Source: Candidatus Aenigmatarchaeota archaeon (GTDB taxonomy: Archaea > Aenigmatarchaeota > Aenigmatarchaeia > Aenigmatarchaeales > JACQIB01). From it: a stretch of 64,000 nucleotides of DNA. Shown piece by piece: positions 5,056 through 64,000 of this stretch (position 1 is its first letter; every line of letters begins with the position of its first letter). Made by a program: the position numbers and the translations under genes. The stretch spans positions 1-64,000 of the forward strand of contig JAZDNN010000025.1 of the NCBI GenBank assembly GCA_043799675.1. The letters are read 5' to 3'. The notes beneath the pieces were generated by a model. It saw nothing but the letters and a program-made list of their open reading frames with translations. It ran no database searches and was not told where the DNA came from.

Positions 5056-5967
5056 CTACCTTGCGAGCAGCGGGATGCTCATGCTCCCGTCTATGGCGTA
5101 TCTGTAGGTGGCGAACACGACCAGCGACTTGCTGTCCACCGGCTGGGTCGCTTTTGCGGTGAACGTGCACGTGCTCCTCTTCGCCTCCTTTCGTATGAAA
5201 TCGATGTCCCGGTTGAGGGTCAGTGTCCTGTCGTACGGGTTCCAGGTGTAATCGTCGCACGGCAGCTCCCCGCTCGGCTCCAGGTTCCCGGGAACCTGTA
5301 TTATGACTTGGCCCGGTGTCGCTCCTGAACCCTGGATTTCAACGGGCCCCCCTTCCAGCCTCTCTATCGTTCCGTCCCCGTTGTTTCTGTAGTCTATGTA
5401 CATCTGGTTGACGCTGTTGTCCAGCAGCGGTTGCCCTTCGGACCCCCAGCTGATGCTCAGCACCAGAGGGCTGACGCTCTTCCACGTGTTTTCCTGGATG
5501 TCCTTCAGCGTCCCCGCCTGCCTCCGCAGCATGTATTCGGTGTCCTGCAGCACTGAGACAGACGTTGTCAGGGTGGCGTTGCTGATGTAGCTTGCATTGA
5601 ACCTGACCGGGCAGCTCCTCTCGAATTCGACCTGCGGGGTGTGGTAGGTCAGCTTGAATATTTCGGTGTTGTTCGGCCTGAGCTCGGCTTTGGCGAAGCT
5701 GTCAATCCCGGTGTTTTCGAACACGCACCTGTCGTACACGCTTATGGCGAAGTCCCTCACCATCACGGAAGGCCTCACCAGCAGCTGCCAGTTGAAGTCC
5801 TGGTTCATCCTTGCGAACTCCGGCACCATGGCCGATATTGCGATGTCCTCGACGCCTCCCTTGACCACGTCCAGCGTAAGGACGTTCTGTATGGTGTTGT
5901 CCGTCTGCCCCACGCAGGCACTGGAAAAGACCACGGCAATCAGTATAAGACCGAATTCCTTTCTCAT
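5056..5967 (-). CDS. predicted lipoprotein, paralog family A
   Basis: Lipobox FSSAC-VGQ; motifs SPLVL, RNNGDG, ATYRY. Confidence 0.8.
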   Translation of the reverse strand: MRKEFGLILIAVVFSSACVGQTDNTIQNVLTLDVVKGGVEDIAISAMVPEFARMNQDFNWQLLVRPSVMVRDFAISVYDRCVFENTGIDSFAKAELRPNNTEIFKLTYHTPQVEFERSCPVRFNASYISNATLTTSVSVLQDTEYMLRRQAGTLKDIQENTWKSVSPLVLSISWGSEGQPLLDNSVNQMYIDYRNNGDGTIERLEGGPVEIQGSGATPGQVIIQVPGNLEPSGELPCDDYTWNPYDRTLTLNRDIDFIRKEAKRSTCTFTAKATQPVDSKSLVVFATYRYAIDGSMSIPLLAR

Positions 5968-57934: not shown

Positions 57935-57964
57935 ATTTATCAATCAGTTTTGTCATTTGCTATC

Positions 57965-58639
57965 ATGCCCTCATCCCCCTCCGTCAAGCCCCTGAAGCTC
58001 TCCCCCTCCTCCCTGAACGCCTTTAGGGACTGTCCGAAGTGCTTCTGGCTGGACATGAACGGGAAGGGCGCGCCCCCGGGCTTCCCTATGGCCCTTCTGT
58101 GCGTGATGGACGGGATCCAGAAGCGCTATTATGACAGCCACAGGGCGGAAGGCCTGCCGCCCATGCTCAAGGGAAAGGTGCCCTTCAAGCTGGTTGATTT
58201 GGAGACGGCCGAGAAGCTGCGTCACTATATAACATGGAACGATGAACAGACCGGGGCCGTCCTGAGGGGTAAGATGGACGATTGCTTTATCGACAGGGAC
58301 GGCACGCTCGTGGTCATGGACAATAAGACCAGGAGCGGCGAGTTCAAGGAGATCTATGACGGATACATGTTCCAGCTTGACACCTACGCCTTCCTGCTGG
58401 CCAAGAACGGGTTCAAGGTCGGAAAGACGGGCTATATCGTGTATTTCGTGCCCGACAAGGAAAGCGACATGGAAAAGGGCGTGAAGTTTGACGTTGATGT
58501 TAAGTCCGTGGAGCTGCATCCCGGCCGCGTGCTTGGGGTGTTCCGGGATGCCGTAAAGCTTGCCCGCCAGGCAAAGCCGCCTGCCAATCACAAGGAGTGC
58601 GAGATGTGCGCCTGGGTCGCCAAGATGGGGGAGATGTAA
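57965..58639 (+). CDS. Cas4-like / RecB-type PD-(D/E)XK nuclease (solo)
   Basis: LSPSSL...CPKCFW, LRGKMDD, VMDNKT, QLDTY (QxxxY), C-terminal CEMC. Confidence 0.85.
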   Translation: MPSSPSVKPLKLSPSSLNAFRDCPKCFWLDMNGKGAPPGFPMALLCVMDGIQKRYYDSHRAEGLPPMLKGKVPFKLVDLETAEKLRHYITWNDEQTGAVLRGKMDDCFIDRDGTLVVMDNKTRSGEFKEIYDGYMFQLDTYAFLLAKNGFKVGKTGYIVYFVPDKESDMEKGVKFDVDVKSVELHPGRVLGVFRDAVKLARQAKPPANHKECEMCAWVAKMGEM

Positions 58640-58816: not shown

Positions 58817-61800
58817 ATGGATTTAAATATTCAAGCACTTTTAGAAAAATTCAAAGAAGGGTTAACATTAGACGGTAGAAAGAAGGTTTTTGAAGATGGG
58901 TATAAACTATCTTCAGATTCTTTATTACAAAAATCTGATCCAGAAGCTTTTACCAAAGATTTCCTAGTAGGACCTGTACTCAATATGTTTGAGTTGTCAA
59001 AACTAACAGAGAGACATTTCAGAGGTATTACAGGAGAGTTAAGAAAAGTTGATTATTTATTAAAAAACCAAAAGAACATATCGTTTTTAGTCGAAGCAAA
59101 ATCTTTAAATTCAGATCTTTTTGAAAAAGGACCGGATGGAGCAGTAAATCAGATTCAAGGATTATTCAGGCTCGCAGAAGTAAAGGAAAATTATAAGTTT
59201 GGTATAGCGACAGATGGATTGAAATGGGTTTTCATTGACAGAAATTCTAAAGTCGTTTTTCGGTTGGAATTGATCAAGGAATTGAAAAAGATTAAAGAAA
59301 TATTGATAGGGAAAGAAGAAGTTTCATCTGAAAGGATAGAAGAAGAAATTAGCAAGAAATTTTATGAGTGGTATAACGCCCTACTACATGGCGGAAAATA
59401 CAAAGACCATGAAAACAAAGTAAGAAAAATTTCCATTAAAGATTGCTTCGTCGAAAACATTCTGTTTGCATCAATTCTAGAAGAAAGAGAACAGATAGCC
59501 CAAACAATAATGGATAGACTGATTTTCATAAAATTCTTGCAGTCGAAAAATATCGTTGGTTATGACATTCTTGATTATCTAATAAATCTCGATGAAAACA
59601 TCCTTAATGAAAAAATAAAACAATTATTTTTTTCTGTTCTAAATACAAAGAAGGATGAAAGATCAGATATTGATACAAAATTCAAAAATGCACCATACCT
59701 TAATGGTAGTTTATTTGTAAGAACAGAAGTAGAACTCAAAAACCCTGACTATAAGATTAAAGCCTTCATATTGAAAGAAGTTATAAGATTCTTGAATTCT
59801 TTCAAATTTGTTCATACCGAAGATGTTTCAAATCACCAAATTTTAGACCCGGAGATTCTTGGATATATTTTTGAGAAAGCAATGACAGCAAAAGATAGAA
59901 AAGGAACTGGTGCTTACTATACCCGTAAATCAATAACAAATTACATTTCTGAAAATACGATACATCCAGTTATTGTAAAAAATGTAAATAAACTATTGAA
60001 AGAGAAGGGCTACAAAGATTCTGAATTTTTAAAAGATGTTGAACAGGTTTACAGTTTGAGGGAATCTACACTTGGAGAAGTTTTTAGTCAAGTAATCCTT
60101 AACTTGAAAATATGCGACAATGCCTGCGGTTCTGGTGCTTTCTTATTGGCAGCCGCAGACGTTCTTTTGGAAGTTTATAGTAGAATAAATGGGGAATTGA
60201 GGTTAAAGAATTCAGAAATAGCAATGAGAAAGCTGATTTTGAAGAATAATCTTTACGGTGTTGATATAAACCCAAATGCCATCGAAATAGCAAAATTAAG
60301 ATTATGGTTGTGGCTTGTTACAGCTTACGAACCAGAAAAAGTTGAACCATTACCTAATATTGATTATAATATAAGAGTTGGAAACAGCTTGATAGGTTAT
60401 ATCAATATAAGCAGATTCAAAGAACATAAACTAACACTTCTTGACTGGTATAGTGCTGAAAAATCATTAAACCTGATGCTGAAAAAGAGAGAAGAAATAA
60501 TACAGAAATATAAAGATGCTGTCGGGGATAAAGCAAGAGAATTAAAAAATGAAATAGACGAGCTTGACAGAAAAATAAAGAAGCTTCTTGATATCAATTT
60601 ATTCCAGGAAATAAGTAAAAAAGCCGATATAGGAGAAGAAGAATTTAAAAAACTAATTCCATTCCATTGGGGATTTGAATTTTACGATGTTTTCGATGGT
60701 AATGGCGACAAAGGTTTTGATGCTGTTATAGGAAATCCGCCATATTTCAAAATCTTCGAGAAAAACATAATCAATAAAACAAACGAATATGAAGAAATTA
60801 AAAGTGGCATGATGAATGCAGCTGCTATTTTTGTTAATCGAACACTTAATTTAACTGACCGTTCTGGTCACGTAGGTATGATAGTTCCAAAAATGTTGGC
60901 TTTCACAGATTCGTGGGACAAAATTAGACAGAAGTTATTAAGAAATTTTACCATGGAAAGAGTAATCGATTGTGGCAAGGCCTTTAAGGGTGTACTTCTA
61001 GAACAAGTAATTTTCATTTTGGATAAATCACCGTTTTCTGAGAAGCATAAAATAGTTATAGGGTACATAGAAGATGGTAGAATCACAGAAACTGCAAAAG
61101 TGATGCAAAGTTTATGTCAAGAAGAAGATGGAATTTATCTCGAACCGAATCAGAAGGCATATTACATAAAAGAAATACTCGAGAAGTCAAAAATCAGATT
61201 AGTAGATGTTTCAGATATTACACTTGGCTTAGGAATACAGGGTAAAAAAGATGTTTTTGTTGAAAGATATCAAAAATGTTATAATAAGGTGCTTCGTGGT
61301 AATGATATTCAAAGGTACTATATCAGAGGATGTAAATTCTATGATCCTAATGACAAAAAAATAGGTGAATATAAAAAAACAATTGAGAAATTTAAAACTC
61401 CTCATATAGTAGTGCAAAGAATTGTGGCCCATATAAGAAACCATATAAAAATTACCGCGGCATTGGATATGGAAGGTATTTTTTCATTCAATACGGTTAC
61501 AAACATCTTTATGAAAGATAAACAATATGACTTAAAATATATTTTGGCTATTCTAAATTCAGATGTAATTCAATATTATACTTATAAATTTATATATAAA
61601 AACGCTATCAGATCGATGGATTTTTATAAAGCATATGCTGGAAAAATACCATTACCAAAAGTAACAGATTCTCAGCAAAAAGAAATAATTAGCTTAGTAG
61701 ATAAAATGTTAGAATTATCAAAGACGTCAACTGAAAAGAACCATAAAACAAATAATGAAATCGAAAAAATAGAAGAATATATTAATGAAATTATTTACTC

Positions 61801-61855
61801 ACATTATGGTATCGGTAAGGAAGAGCAAGAAACCATAAAAGAGAGTTTGAAATAA
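58817..61855 (+). CDS. Type IIG fused restriction endonuclease-methyltransferase (Eco57I/TaqI-like)
   Basis: VDY...VEAK nuclease, GAYYT, DNACGSGAFL, GNPPY, C-terminal TRD; strongly AT-rich. Confidence 0.92.
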   Translation: MDLNIQALLEKFKEGLTLDGRKKVFEDGYKLSSDSLLQKSDPEAFTKDFLVGPVLNMFELSKLTERHFRGITGELRKVDYLLKNQKNISFLVEAKSLNSDLFEKGPDGAVNQIQGLFRLAEVKENYKFGIATDGLKWVFIDRNSKVVFRLELIKELKKIKEILIGKEEVSSERIEEEISKKFYEWYNALLHGGKYKDHENKVRKISIKDCFVENILFASILEEREQIAQTIMDRLIFIKFLQSKNIVGYDILDYLINLDENILNEKIKQLFFSVLNTKKDERSDIDTKFKNAPYLNGSLFVRTEVELKNPDYKIKAFILKEVIRFLNSFKFVHTEDVSNHQILDPEILGYIFEKAMTAKDRKGTGAYYTRKSITNYISENTIHPVIVKNVNKLLKEKGYKDSEFLKDVEQVYSLRESTLGEVFSQVILNLKICDNACGSGAFLLAAADVLLEVYSRINGELRLKNSEIAMRKLILKNNLYGVDINPNAIEIAKLRLWLWLVTAYEPEKVEPLPNIDYNIRVGNSLIGYINISRFKEHKLTLLDWYSAEKSLNLMLKKREEIIQKYKDAVGDKARELKNEIDELDRKIKKLLDINLFQEISKKADIGEEEFKKLIPFHWGFEFYDVFDGNGDKGFDAVIGNPPYFKIFEKNIINKTNEYEEIKSGMMNAAAIFVNRTLNLTDRSGHVGMIVPKMLAFTDSWDKIRQKLLRNFTMERVIDCGKAFKGVLLEQVIFILDKSPFSEKHKIVIGYIEDGRITETAKVMQSLCQEEDGIYLEPNQKAYYIKEILEKSKIRLVDVSDITLGLGIQGKKDVFVERYQKCYNKVLRGNDIQRYYIRGCKFYDPNDKKIGEYKKTIEKFKTPHIVVQRIVAHIRNHIKITAALDMEGIFSFNTVTNIFMKDKQYDLKYILAILNSDVIQYYTYKFIYKNAIRSMDFYKAYAGKIPLPKVTDSQQKEIISLVDKMLELSKTSTEKNHKTNNEIEKIEEYINEIIYSHYGIGKEEQETIKESLK

Positions 61856-62140
61856 ATGCCCTCATCTGTACCCCAAACCGTCAAATGCCCCTTCTGCCAA
61901 GTCGGCGACATAACGGTCTTCATCAAGGAAAAGTCATTCTCGACCAAAAAGACCCGCTGCCGGGCAGGTCGCAGCTCAACGACTACCGTTCATCATGCAC
62001 GGATGGAGGCCCTAAATGACTGCCCCTCCTGTCATGCTTCCAAAAAGGATATCGAATCCAAGCTCAAGGGCAGCAAATCAATGTCCGCCTCCGATGCAGC
62101 CAAAAGGGCCCAGGCGGCCGGCTTGCCGACGCGCATATAG
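61856..62140 (+). CDS. small zinc-finger protein (anchor of the 3' repeat array)
   Basis: CPFC...CPSC, ends KRAQAAGLPTRI. Confidence 0.8.
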   Translation: MPSSVPQTVKCPFCQVGDITVFIKEKSFSTKKTRCRAGRSSTTTVHHARMEALNDCPSCHASKKDIESKLKGSKSMSASDAAKRAQAAGLPTRI

Positions 62141-62340
62141 CAGGATTACGCAGAGCGGTCATGGTCCGCTTTCTTTGCGCCTTTTCTTACTTCGCTTTTA
62201 TCTTCCGCATATGCCTTGCCGTAGAAGCAGAAAGCCATCGATGCCAGCCAAAAGAGAATCACGACGGCGGTAGAGGGGCATAATGTCATAATTACGCTAT
62301 ATCATAACCTGTATATAAACCTTATGTCACAACAGCAAGC

Positions 62341-62478
62341 ATGGCGAAGAAGCGGACCACGCTCTACCTGCGCGAGGACCTGTGGAAGAAGCTCAGGCAC
62401 CTTTCCATAGACCAGGAAAAGAGCACCTCTCAGTTGCTTGAGGAGATAGTGGAAAGTCACCTGAAGAAGATGAAGTGA
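62341..62478 (+). CDS. ribbon-helix-helix protein
   Basis: Manual translation MAKKRTTLYLREDLWKKLRHLSIDQEKSTSQLLEEIVESHLKKMK; TATA tatataaa upstream. Confidence 0.8.
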   Translation: MAKKRTTLYLREDLWKKLRHLSIDQEKSTSQLLEEIVESHLKKMK

Positions 62479-62485
62479 TTCCTAT

Positions 62486-62680
62486 ATGGAACGAAAAGTA
62501 AAGAATGAAATAAAAGATTATACGCAATTGTTTTGGTTAGGTATAGTAGGCGCTTTTTGTGCTTTAATTTTTCAGAATGCTGATTTTTCATCAGGTTCTG
62601 ATATGGCATGGCGGTTGGCGTCTACTATGATTATATATTTCACAGGATTTGTATTTTATCATTGGTACAATAATATTTGA
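62486..62680 (+). CDS. small 2-TM membrane protein
   Basis: AT-rich, two hydrophobic segments. Confidence 0.6.
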   Translation: MERKVKNEIKDYTQLFWLGIVGAFCALIFQNADFSSGSDMAWRLASTMIIYFTGFVFYHWYNNI

Positions 62681-62739
62681 TTTCGTTATCCTCATACGGA
62701 GGGCTCAGGCGGCCGGGCTGCCGACGAGGATATGACTTT

Positions 62740-63147
62740 CTATTCCTCTTCAACTATCTCCGCAGATTCAATCCAGTACAGTTTGATGTCAGATTTCTTG
62801 ACTTCTGGAATGACGTGCTTGAGGCACTCGCGGATGTGATTATCGTTGGGTTGGGCTATGGCGATGATTGCGTTTTGATCCTTGTTCCGCTCTTCCAGGA
62901 TCTTAACCAGTGCTTTGCCGAAATGGTCCTTTATCTGGCCCGAATCGAATTTCGGGCGTTTTGTAACATGAGATCTCGGATTGCCTTTGCGGCCTTTGGC
63001 CTCCACTATTAGACGCTTTCCATCTTTTCGTGCAACGATATCACATCCATGCTTGTGACCTATGGAAGTTTCCTCAATTTTCCATCCTCTTGTTTCTAAC
63101 CATTTACACAAGCATCTTATGACGTCATCTTCGAACTCAATTTTCAT
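62740..63147 (-). CDS. small PD-(D/E)XK endonuclease-fold protein
   Basis: EDDV, GCDIVARK...LIVEAKG, GQI. Confidence 0.75.
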   Translation of the reverse strand: MKIEFEDDVIRCLCKWLETRGWKIEETSIGHKHGCDIVARKDGKRLIVEAKGRKGNPRSHVTKRPKFDSGQIKDHFGKALVKILEERNKDQNAIIAIAQPNDNHIRECLKHVIPEVKKSDIKLYWIESAEIVEEE

Positions 63148-63207
63148 GCACTAGATTGGGGAAGAGGGATATTAAGTTGCGAAGGCGGCCGGCCTACCAA
63201 CGCGCAT

Positions 63208-63771
63208 TTAGCGACGGTAAGACCAGAGTATGAAATCCAGCAATTTCACGTCGTTTATGTCGTTTTTATCGATTATCAGAGACGCTCTTGTCCTGTCTAA
63301 CATGCCTTTTATTCTATCGTCGTTAAGCAGCTCCTGGAATTTTCTTTCAAGCTCATTGTATTTTTCGCAGGCATCATTAATTCCATTAGGTGTCTTAAGA
63401 CCGAACGCGCGTCTGATTTGGCTGTCCCAAATCGGTTTGTCGGGCTCAACAGTATGTTTGATTTTAGTCGCAAAGCTGAATTGAACGTTCTTATCGATAC
63501 GATACAACCCCTCTAAAATTGTTCTCAAGTCAGACTCCTTGTTATAGAGAAATTCAAACAATTCACGAACAACGGCCTTGGACGGAAACCTGATTACGTA
63601 GAATCGCTTAAACCTTTTTTCAAAGAATTCCTTATCTGGAACGTCGGCACCAAACTGTTTCATGATCCATACATAGTCTTTCAATTCATCCCTTCGTCTA
63701 AGGTAATCTATTATTTTCTTTTCATTTTCGAGCAAATCGTCTATGTCCATACCAAGAATAGCCGGCATCAC
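63208..63771 (-). CDS. hypothetical protein (possible HhH/glycosylase-like fold)
   Basis: FKRFY, QFSFATKIKH...PIWDS, KLLDFILW. Confidence 0.6.
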   Translation of the reverse strand: MMPAILGMDIDDLLENEKKIIDYLRRRDELKDYVWIMKQFGADVPDKEFFEKRFKRFYVIRFPSKAVVRELFEFLYNKESDLRTILEGLYRIDKNVQFSFATKIKHTVEPDKPIWDSQIRRAFGLKTPNGINDACEKYNELERKFQELLNDDRIKGMLDRTRASLIIDKNDINDVKLLDFILWSYRR

Positions 63772-64000
63772 ATCTAATAAGCGTTAGATGCTTCGTGCCC
63801 AAGCGGCCGGGTTGCCGACCAGAATCTGACCTGAAAGGCTGTCGCGGCTGCCAAAAGGCCCTTCGCCGGGGGATACGAAAATAGCTATGTTAGAATACTT
63901 TTATGAAAACTGTTGATTAAGAATTTTATTTAATTTCAAGCGACTCTCTTATTGCATCTAGTACAGGTTCGGCTTTTGCATACGATTCTACTACTTCATC

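Follow-up and report, generated by a model that had tools for sequence, protein, structure and literature searches.

How does the 3' end of one gene come to stand four times in a row, each time in different codons and each time joined to other genes? The question is raised by the last part of a 64,000-nucleotide stretch of DNA (positions 1-64000 of contig C6, in the following called the window) from the genome of a Candidatus Aenigmatarchaeota archaeon, an assembly of 749 kb with 45 contigs, 54% GC and 83% completeness. Here an intact Zn-ribbon gene ends in the codons for AAGLPTRI and a stop, and the same ending recurs three times downstream, separated by small units of foreign composition. 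The reading that we favour, and that we hold to be evenly poised between right and wrong, is that the array is a stack of recombination scars, left by serial Campbell-type insertion at the gene end with each insertion displacing the older end.

A degenerate pattern for AAGLPTRI-stop has exactly four plus-strand matches in the window (at 62114, 62709, 63185 and 63803), with copy-to-copy spacings of 595, 476 and 618 nt; dinucleotide shuffles (n=100) gave a mean of 0.00 matches and none reached four. Each copy consists of the core GCGGCCGG plus 19 nt. Only copy 1 ends an intact open reading frame (ORF), and the gene body is absent from copies 2 to 4: copy 2 sits in the +1 frame of the preceding small ORF, with no in-frame ATG or GTG, and copy 4 is preceded by TAG-ATG. 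Further copies were to be looked for beyond 64 kb; when all 45 contigs were scanned in six frames, the 3.1 kb of this contig past the window among them, the four exact copies turned up and no fifth. Four further matches with two substitutions in the genome scan were unrelated. A candidate decayed fifth copy at 63847-63861, resembling the AAKRA codons upstream of copy 1, was discarded as not significant, its score being equalled or exceeded by 382 of 14,732 genome windows.

Compared with copy 1, copies 2, 3 and 4 differ at 6, 4 and 7 of 27 nucleotides, and all pairwise differences range from 4 to 10 of 27. All ten variable columns (10/10) are either synonymous or a TAG/TGA exchange, and the peptide was preserved in none of 200,000 simulated sets with an equal number of random changes. 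The upstream residues RAQ are common to copies 1, 2 and 4, with synonymous differences (AGG/CGT, CAG/CAA), and copy 3 begins at AK. Within the 24 sense nucleotides, eight variable columns were seen and 8.85 +/- 0.88 are expected from simulated independent encodings with host codon usage; thus, the synonymous sites of the four copies are saturated. An invariant run of at least 8 nt, as given by the core, had P=0.0058 among 100,000 simulated encodings. These data bear out the original prediction, made from the letters of the window, in its claims of four recoded copies at these spacings, of differences that are all synonymous including the stop codon and of a core that is invariant across the copies. 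Homology between the units starts 10-15 codons before the stop and ends at the stop codon; they have nothing else in common. Two ideas about the DNA itself were dropped: the palindrome CGGCCG in the core is mildly under-represented in the genome (467 sites, observed/expected 0.80), so neither rare nor avoided, and a 25-nt inverted repeat flanking cargo 2 (I1, 76% complementary) lies partly in coding sequence and was judged to be chance.

That the copies are an assembly artefact or an in-situ duplication is hardly credible. In favour of an artefact one may cite that the genome was assembled from a metagenome, into 45 contigs, and that contig ends are a frequent place for Zn-ribbon loci; however, each interval holds unrelated cargo, the same kind of structure occurs in independent assemblies, and the synonymous saturation excludes a recent duplication. 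Exact identity between the copies extends over at most ~11 nt, which is below any assembler word size and thus rules out that strains were mis-joined by the assembler.

Table. Features of the array and its surroundings, and orphan tails of the Zn-ribbon gene in other genomes (positions refer to the window or, for the other genomes, to the local Zn-ribbon gene).
Feature	Position	Strand	Details
PD-(D/E)XK Cas4-like nuclease gene	57950..58639	+	PF12705 E 2.5e-12; PADLOC Cas4 models; GC ~55%, host-like
Type IIG restriction-modification enzyme gene (Eco57I/MmeI type)	58817..61855	+	PF07669 1.4e-29, N6_Mtase, TaqI_C; PADLOC REase_MTase_IIG 4.3e-59
Intact Zn-ribbon gene, array anchor	61856..62140	+	94 codons, two CxxC pairs, C-terminal ...RAQAAGLPTRI
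Copy 1, working gene end	62105..62140	+	RAQAAGLPTRI-stop (TAG); core GCGGCCGG at 62114-62121
Cargo 1	62141..62687	both	three small ORFs; composition mosaic, ~50% GC then 31%
47-aa hydrophobic ORF, cargo 1	62146-62289	-	convergent, 6 nt after Zn-ribbon stop
RHH/CopG gene, cargo 1	62341-62478	+	PF01402, E 1.8e-5
64-aa membrane ORF, cargo 1	62486-62680	+	
Copy 2, orphan end	62688..62735	+	(ILI)RRAQAAGLPTRI-stop (TGA); ~15 codons, no Zn-ribbon body upstream
Cargo 2, 135-aa PD-(D/E)XK (Mrr/YraN-like) nuclease gene	62740-63147 (unit 62740..63178)	-	UPF0102, YraN models
Copy 3, orphan end	63179..63211	+	AKAAGLPTRI-stop (TAG); 10 codons, in-frame TAA before
Cargo 3, 187-aa protein	63208..63787 (ORF 63208-63771)	-	probably 180 aa, start Met8
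Copy 4, orphan end	63791..63829	+	LRAQAAGLPTRI-stop (TGA); 12 codons
HEPN (RiboL-PSP) gene + DUF262/GmrSD_N gene, next defence unit	63926..65489 (contig; window part to 64000)	-	PF18735 1e-12, PF03235 1.4e-28
Orphan tail, G006 (same family; L022)	~60 nt after gene		relic 11 codons
Orphan tail, G023	after 1-kb HicAB unit		relic 16 codons
Orphan tail, G016	after 6 kb with ABC-3C (DUF2326), Shedu-like, Hjc-like nuclease, winged helix-turn-helix proteins		relic 26-30 codons
Orphan tail, L116	3.8 kb downstream		relic 41 codons from second CxxC
Orphan tail, G334/L101	upstream of intact gene, then AbiEi/AbiEii	inverted	relic ~20-27 codons
Orphan tail, L132	upstream of intact gene	inverted	relic ~18 codons at most

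What, then, were the orphan ends before they lost their genes? All four copies are followed by a convergent gene, at distances of 6 nt, 4 nt, with overlapping stops, and 96 nt (the HEPN gene). A convergent gene at the stop is the native layout of intact loci, in which 24 of 47 downstream neighbours are convergent, 15 of these within -18 to +8 nt of the Zn-ribbon stop. Each relic is thus still joined to the former neighbour of a complete Zn-ribbon gene, and the unit is the gene end with its convergent gene. Together with the purely synonymous differences this layout supports the earlier claim that each copy was once a working gene end: the relics are former working ends and, with no nonsynonymous change or indel, young ones. 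That they are functional elements under selection, either translated mini-ORFs or a cis signal for the convergent genes, we consider very improbable. Selection could account for the absence of nonsynonymous changes and indels in the orphans, and copy 4 does read ATG-LRAQAAGLPTRI-stop; but copy 3 lacks a start codon and is preceded by TAA in frame, an in-frame start is also missing from copy 2, a cis-acting DNA or RNA signal would not vary solely at third codon positions, and the orphans of other genomes differ in length and some carry substitutions.

The cargo itself has a GC content of 31-45% and is foreign in composition, while the copies use host-like, GC-rich codons. Two cargo stops abut or overlap the repeat, as had been noted before: the stop of the cargo 2 nuclease ORF is at 62740, 4 nt past copy 2, and that of cargo 3 (63208-63210) overlaps the stop of copy 3 (63209-63211). 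Promoters are predicted within the units. A TATA-like TATATAAA lies between the divergent ORFs of cargo 1, and A/T-rich boxes, likewise TATA-like, precede the likely starts of the reverse-strand cargo genes by ~26 nt, pressed against the next copy; in cargo 2 the box is TATTAA (63170-63175), ~26 nt before the ATG. For cargo 3 the Atlas record of the protein begins at Met8, which fits the spacing to the TATA-like box. Of the functions proposed originally for the three intervals, the RHH gene in the first stands (Table). A PD-(D/E)XK nuclease in the second is a weak assignment, Mrr_cat (E 6.5e-4) being just under the cut-off, and the glycosylase fold proposed for the 187-aa protein in the third is not supported, as domain libraries return only a sub-threshold match to DUF6308 and its look-alikes in the Atlas are unnamed. 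For four of the five window cargo proteins, comparison with 106 other loci gave no homologue. The exception is the cargo 3 protein, with one homologue, in G023, 2.3 kb downstream of the Zn-ribbon gene (40% identity to L027 and L126, of which L126 duplicates L027, being the same contig, and was counted once). Its nearest Atlas clusters are unnamed proteins of ~188 aa, labelled mostly as Bacteria (Bacillota) and tailed phages, which hints at a spread of the gene across domains. Small Hjc/Endonuc_Holl/Mrr-like PD-(D/E)XK nucleases recur directly downstream of Zn-ribbon genes (L070, L083, L086, L030 and the window, 62740-63147); cluster c23 consists of four such genes in three loci, and an Hjc-like ORF is also found in the G016 insert.

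Orphan tails are not confined to the window. We scanned 107 loci (the contig end with the window, 56 stretches from species-representative genomes and 50 metagenome contigs) with each locus's own last 14 residues as query and thresholds derived from shuffled tails; 95 of the 107 have a recognisable Zn-ribbon gene, with one duplicate pair among them. Besides the window with its three orphans, six of 94 loci carry one orphan tail each (Table); an additional match in L114 (score 31) was dropped as noise at the threshold. Longer 3' fragments of ~50-73 codons are present in L157, L159 and L160, 5' head fragments in L162 and L163, and an internally decayed Zn-ribbon gene in L158. A control scan of the 95 loci for orphan 5' heads returned seven rows with no convincing case, in comparison to nine orphan tails: four rows were the gene's own second Zn knuckle, two look like other CxxC sequences and one (L132) was doubtful. 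The cargo beside the orphan tails differs from genome to genome. Aligned as DNA, gene and orphan are recoded relative to each other apart from blocks of perfect identity: 23 nt long in L116, 9-10 nt in G023 and 19 nt in G016, where the block is at the very end. In G006, gene and orphan are separated by a spacer of ~60 nt without an ORF, which contains a hairpin with a perfect 8-bp stem (GGAGAACC gta GGTTCTCC; G006:C13 (L022) 5757-5830, minus strand); judged by its sequence, the spacer looks like an 'empty' unit.

Several features argue for serial Campbell-type insertion: the copies all point the same way, their right boundary is fixed at the stop codon and their left boundaries cluster, the core is invariant and each tail is contiguous with its neighbour; the sharp identical blocks of L116 (23 nt) and G016 (19 nt) are as expected at a crossover, and the invariant core would fit a common crossover point. 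An incoming piece of DNA, probably a circle, would carry a truncated Zn-ribbon gene end and recombine with its resident counterpart within a short run of identity (here GCGGCCGG). The resident gene would thereby gain a new synonymous tail, and its previous tail would be pushed downstream together with the cargo, so that the newest unit adjoins the gene and copy 4 would be the oldest, original end. The reaction might be catalysed by a trans-acting recombinase that is unassembled or borne by a virus or plasmid, or be due to the host's own short-homology recombination, perhaps where the island's many nucleases have cut. By its layout, each block of tail and small gene is a piece of a related lineage's locus. 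Under the insertion reading copies 2 to 4 may, with equal chances either way, be the untranslated, 5'-truncated ends of other versions of the same gene, taken from related lineages; these source lineages would have diverged to synonymous saturation while still encoding the same tail. Equally balanced is the view that the mobile unit consists of a gene end plus one small, self-promoted gene or mini-operon of defence or toxin-antitoxin type, ~0.5-0.6 kb in size.

A number of observations, from the repeat itself and from the other loci, weigh against this reading. With 106 occurrences of GCGGCCGG in the genome, the core 8-mer cannot define the site by itself. To the left of the core, the relics (RAQ, RRAQ) show conservation of the coding type, which the att arm of an element would not need. 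The gene and the orphan of G006 share at most 6 identical nucleotides in a row, the identical blocks fall on different codons in different genomes, and the inverted orphans upstream of an intact gene (L101, L132) are not given by simple Campbell insertion. Nor are relic lengths fixed across genomes (10 to ~73 codons): left boundaries vary among genomes yet cluster at 10-15 codons in the window. Randomly placed copy boundaries, which had been named in advance as an argument against insertion, are therefore seen in part, namely in the relic lengths and the shifting identical blocks. Further observations on the same side concern the enzyme: PF00589 and PF00239, the families of tyrosine and serine recombinases, have no match in the 749-kb, 83% complete assembly (controls were positive, and PF00589 matched in 14 of 14 named genomes), PF00589 was also not found in G006, and no integrase lies between a Zn-ribbon gene and its orphan in the loci examined. 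PF00239 occurs in 23 of 371 genomes of the class, the nearest copy 21 kb from a Zn-ribbon gene and never within 20 kb. No self-sufficient element with a cognate recombinase was found at the gene-end site in the loci examined, and viral contigs yielded no relatives.

The absence of an integrase from the array had been part of the original prediction and extends, by the search of the assembly, to tyrosine and serine recombinases in the genome as far as it is complete (83%); nor is there a recombinase domain in the ORFs around the array. Elsewhere, PF00589 is found in 1-4 copies in G023, G016, G027 and G029, and some of those in G027 and G029 are on the contig of the Zn-ribbon gene, 4-5 kb off. 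A cluster of tyrosine recombinases (c7) is present in 4 of 57 clustered loci, and is upstream in both loci that could be placed relative to the Zn-ribbon gene; a further integrase is encoded ~5 kb downstream of the gene in G027. Beside none of these integrases, including those of G027, is there an orphan tail. A dedicated site-specific cassette system, whether integron-like or similar to the SCC (staphylococcal cassette chromosome) elements and CIMEs (cis-mobilizable elements), would recognise the tail by a recombinase encoded in the unassembled 17% of the genome or by a helper virus or plasmid; we consider it quite improbable. The tandem array in one orientation, the common core and the single-gene units of 0.5-0.6 kb would suit it, and bacteria provide precedents in pseudo-SCC elements (PMC2900268, as excerpted) and in CIME accretion (PMC5704250, as excerpted). 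Against it speak that no recombinase is linked to the loci examined and no self-sufficient element was found, that the core is common in the genome (106 occurrences), that the identity blocks differ between genomes, that the family has no relatives on viral contigs and that the copies have no attC-like folds: in 76-nt windows around the four copies, folded as DNA on both strands, no common attC-type hairpin was found and z ranged from -1.12 to +0.90 (200 shuffles each).

The array should not be called an integron, because three defining features fail: an IntI, folded attC sites and promoterless cassettes in one orientation. The term 'integron-like', under which the array was first described, does not hold for the same reasons, with cargo on both strands and predicted promoters of its own. 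The likeness that remains consists of tandem small single-gene units, a repeated site and a fixed anchor. Integrons have been reported in Archaea (bioRxiv 10.1101/2022.02.06.479319, as excerpted). In integrons generally, cassettes are mostly promoterless, in one orientation and served by a common promoter, in contrast to the cargo of the array with its predicted own TATA-like boxes; and the repeat of the array, unlike an attC site, is the end of a protein-coding gene.

Is the gene end a neutral landing site? The Zn-ribbon protein of the window retains all family-invariant residues and has an AF2 model (pLDDT 78) with a five-stranded sheet followed by two helices. It matches no Pfam, NCBIfam or PADLOC model, and its AF2 model has no significant fold match (best Foldseek E 0.14 to the MqsA N-domain, best VIA Z 3.4). 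The family, with members of 90-115 aa, is patchily distributed, in up to five copies per genome (five in G016): 79 of the 371 genomes of the class have it, as do 14 of 61 relatives. A profile search of a large protein collection gave 139 family proteins at E <= 1e-5, with organism labels of Aenigmatarchaeota, Nanoarchaeota, Asgard and Bathyarchaeia; almost all are unnamed, and the few names are 'hypothetical protein' or mutually conflicting automatic labels ('Zn ribbon nucleic-acid-binding protein'). The C-terminal R-x-K/Q-x-x-G-L-P-x-x-I/F is among the best conserved parts. The nearest database homologues, P0107 (73% identity, on a 13-kb contig) and P0094 (67%), already deviate at 1-2 of 11 residues of the tail. 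A single-protein scan of metagenome contigs found no close relatives, and an alignment scan found no family member on viral contigs.

The neighbourhood of the family was analysed by clustering the ORFs of 57 fetched loci, in 48 of which the Zn-ribbon gene joined the family cluster. Restriction-modification (RM) clusters are within 7 kb of the Zn-ribbon gene in 33 of these 48 loci and are direct neighbours in 21; they comprise Eco57I/MmeI-type IIG enzymes, N6/N4 methylases, type I R and S subunits and MvaI, and often the RM gene is located 0-5 nt upstream on the same strand. The Zn-ribbon gene is thus an accessory gene of RM modules and not a housekeeping target, and the idea that its end serves as a neutral insertion target has to be given up: the anchor belongs to RM modules and lies inside a shuffled defence island. 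That an otherwise unannotated family is a regular neighbour of RM genes is an observation in its own right.

This association is also what lends weight to the replacement of entire modules as an explanation. An incoming module of RM gene, Zn-ribbon gene and downstream gene would replace the resident one, joined by homology on the upstream side and, inside the Zn-ribbon gene, illegitimately by microhomology, and each event would leave behind the last codons of the resident gene together with its downstream neighbour. We regard this as unlikely, if quite conceivable. The Zn-ribbon gene does travel with RM genes (33/48 within 7 kb, 21/48 as direct neighbours, five copies in G016), the relics range from 10 to ~73 codons, with heads in L162 and L163 and internal decay in L158, and the entire relic, including the part left of the core, resembles former coding sequence; the inverted orphans of L101 and L132 fit general shuffling, and no recombinase was found. 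However, random joints would hardly fall three times in the last 10-15 of 94 codons (we estimate (16/95)^3, ~0.005), replacement accounts neither for the invariant core (P=0.0058) nor for the sharp identity blocks, and the RM gene (30% GC) and the Zn-ribbon gene (55% GC) of the window do not look co-transferred.

The last point deserves a closer look at the DNA upstream of the array. The type IIG RM ORF has 30% GC, in comparison to ~55%, as in the genome, for the Cas4-like and Zn-ribbon genes on its flanks; the AT-rich segment matches the ORF exactly (58817-61855), and the Zn-ribbon ATG follows its stop without a gap (TAA|ATG). RM and Zn-ribbon genes are similar in GC in most other loci. Here it looks as if just the RM ORF had been swapped in, with boundaries exact to the ORF. 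The module of Cas4-like nuclease, type IIG RM gene and Zn-ribbon gene is also present in L025, L031 and L070, and by tblastn the Cas4-like nuclease recurs beside the Zn-ribbon gene in four other loci (L087, L022, L103 and L025). Downstream, copy 4 is followed by a DUF262 plus HEPN unit of 33% GC that resembles a PD-T4-2/NsnA pair (PADLOC NsnA 5.8e-66, PD-T4-2_A 9e-51). With the RM module before it and this pair after copy 4, the array lies inside a defence island. After the DUF262/HEPN pair comes a gene of host-like GC for an SNase plus lamin-tail-domain nuclease.

Stacked insertion scars at gene ends have bacterial counterparts. In Escherichia coli, insertion of e14 or phage 21 into icd supplies a mostly synonymous substitute 3' end and leaves the displaced end as the icdC pseudogene fragment (PMC13626634, as excerpted, citing Hill et al. 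1989). The likeness is in the renewed gene end and in the displaced old end on the far side. However, e14 is a single prophage of 15 kb that brings its own integrase and is excised on SOS induction, whereas the array has three units of 0.5-0.6 kb, no integrase that could be found, an archaeal host and an RM-linked accessory gene as anchor. CIMEs and the tandem accretion of ICEs and IMEs (integrative and conjugative, and integrative and mobilizable elements) take place at the end of a target gene in the ICESt1 family of Streptococcus thermophilus (excerpt of PMC5704250), and in staphylococci pseudo-SCC elements without ccr, flanked by integration site sequences, reside at the 3' end of orfX (rlmH) (excerpt of PMC2900268). 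The array resembles both in that its units are flanked by direct repeats of the target 3' end (four copies on the same strand) while the gene stays intact. The differences are in the elements: CIMEs are decayed ICEs or IMEs that are moved by the tyrosine recombinase of a related element, whereas the units of the array are single complete genes for which no related self-sufficient element or recombinase was found. SCC elements are 10-60 kb in size and moved by Ccr large serine recombinases, enzymes of a type that is rare in the archaeal class (23/371 genomes) and never near the Zn-ribbon gene. In staphylococci the variants of the orfX repeat are reportedly all synonymous, down to the stop codon.

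Partial copies of the target gene and displacement of older elements also characterise the Tycheposon islands of Prochlorococcus, where successive integrations push older elements inward (bioRxiv 10.1101/2020.12.28.424599, as excerpted). Their targets are tRNA genes and their elements carry tyrosine recombinases, unlike the array with its protein-coding target and no recombinase found. RM-linked insertion can further occur with a long target duplication, which leaves near-identical target duplicates as flanking repeats; the copies of the array, by contrast, differ among themselves at 4-10 of 27 nt and have saturated synonymous sites.

Defence islands of ultra-small, host-dependent archaea are variable, the mode by which they gain genes is not understood, and many of these genomes have few or no recognisable enzymes of mobile elements. 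Tandem units without a recombinase, bounded by copies of a gene's 3' end, are of a kind known in bacteria. New are the setting in Archaea, in a lineage where no recombinase is detectable, the very small size of the self-promoted units (promoters predicted) with no linked enzyme found, and the anchor, an unannotated Zn-ribbon partner of RM systems. Among the papers listed by literature searches on DPANN/Aenigmarchaeota defence islands, integrases, RM systems and archaeal integrons, no title or abstract start mentions such an array or this Zn-ribbon family, which is weak evidence of absence.

If serial insertion is correct, for which the chances are level, the locus would preserve, in legible form, three gains in succession at a position defined to the codon. 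Should these insertions need no dedicated recombinase, cassette arrays would be built here in a way unlike integrons, SCC elements or ICE accretion; should a trans-acting recombinase be found, a known mechanism of accretion would be extended to archaea and to a protein-gene target. One form of the first case, which we consider distinctly unlikely, is that DPANN archaea without tyrosine or serine recombinases run a recombinase-independent site of gene capture, with the conserved Zn-ribbon tail as a docking point of short homology. Complete, self-promoted defence or toxin-antitoxin genes would then be exchanged between lineages together with truncated gene ends, driven by host recombination or by the nucleases of the island (Cas4-like, small Hjc/Mrr-like); this elaboration is similarly doubtful.

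The family marks variable sites across at least one archaeal class, in addition to being a regular partner of RM genes. In the assemblies of relatives, many Zn-ribbon genes are located within a few hundred bases of contig ends (G275:C42, G307:C15, G068:C57, G272:C37, G343:C42, G095:C1, G049:C16, G174:C104, G328:C37, G295:C129, G309:C156 and G295:C24), which suggests that assemblies tend to break at strain-variable DNA beside the gene. A DDE transposase with a SWIM zinc finger (cluster c3, PF01609) is encoded in 10 of the 57 clustered loci, and in 8 of 48 loci (L024, L025, L028, L034, L035, L036, L089 and L092) it lies within ~5 kb of the Zn-ribbon gene, another sign of recombination-prone sites.

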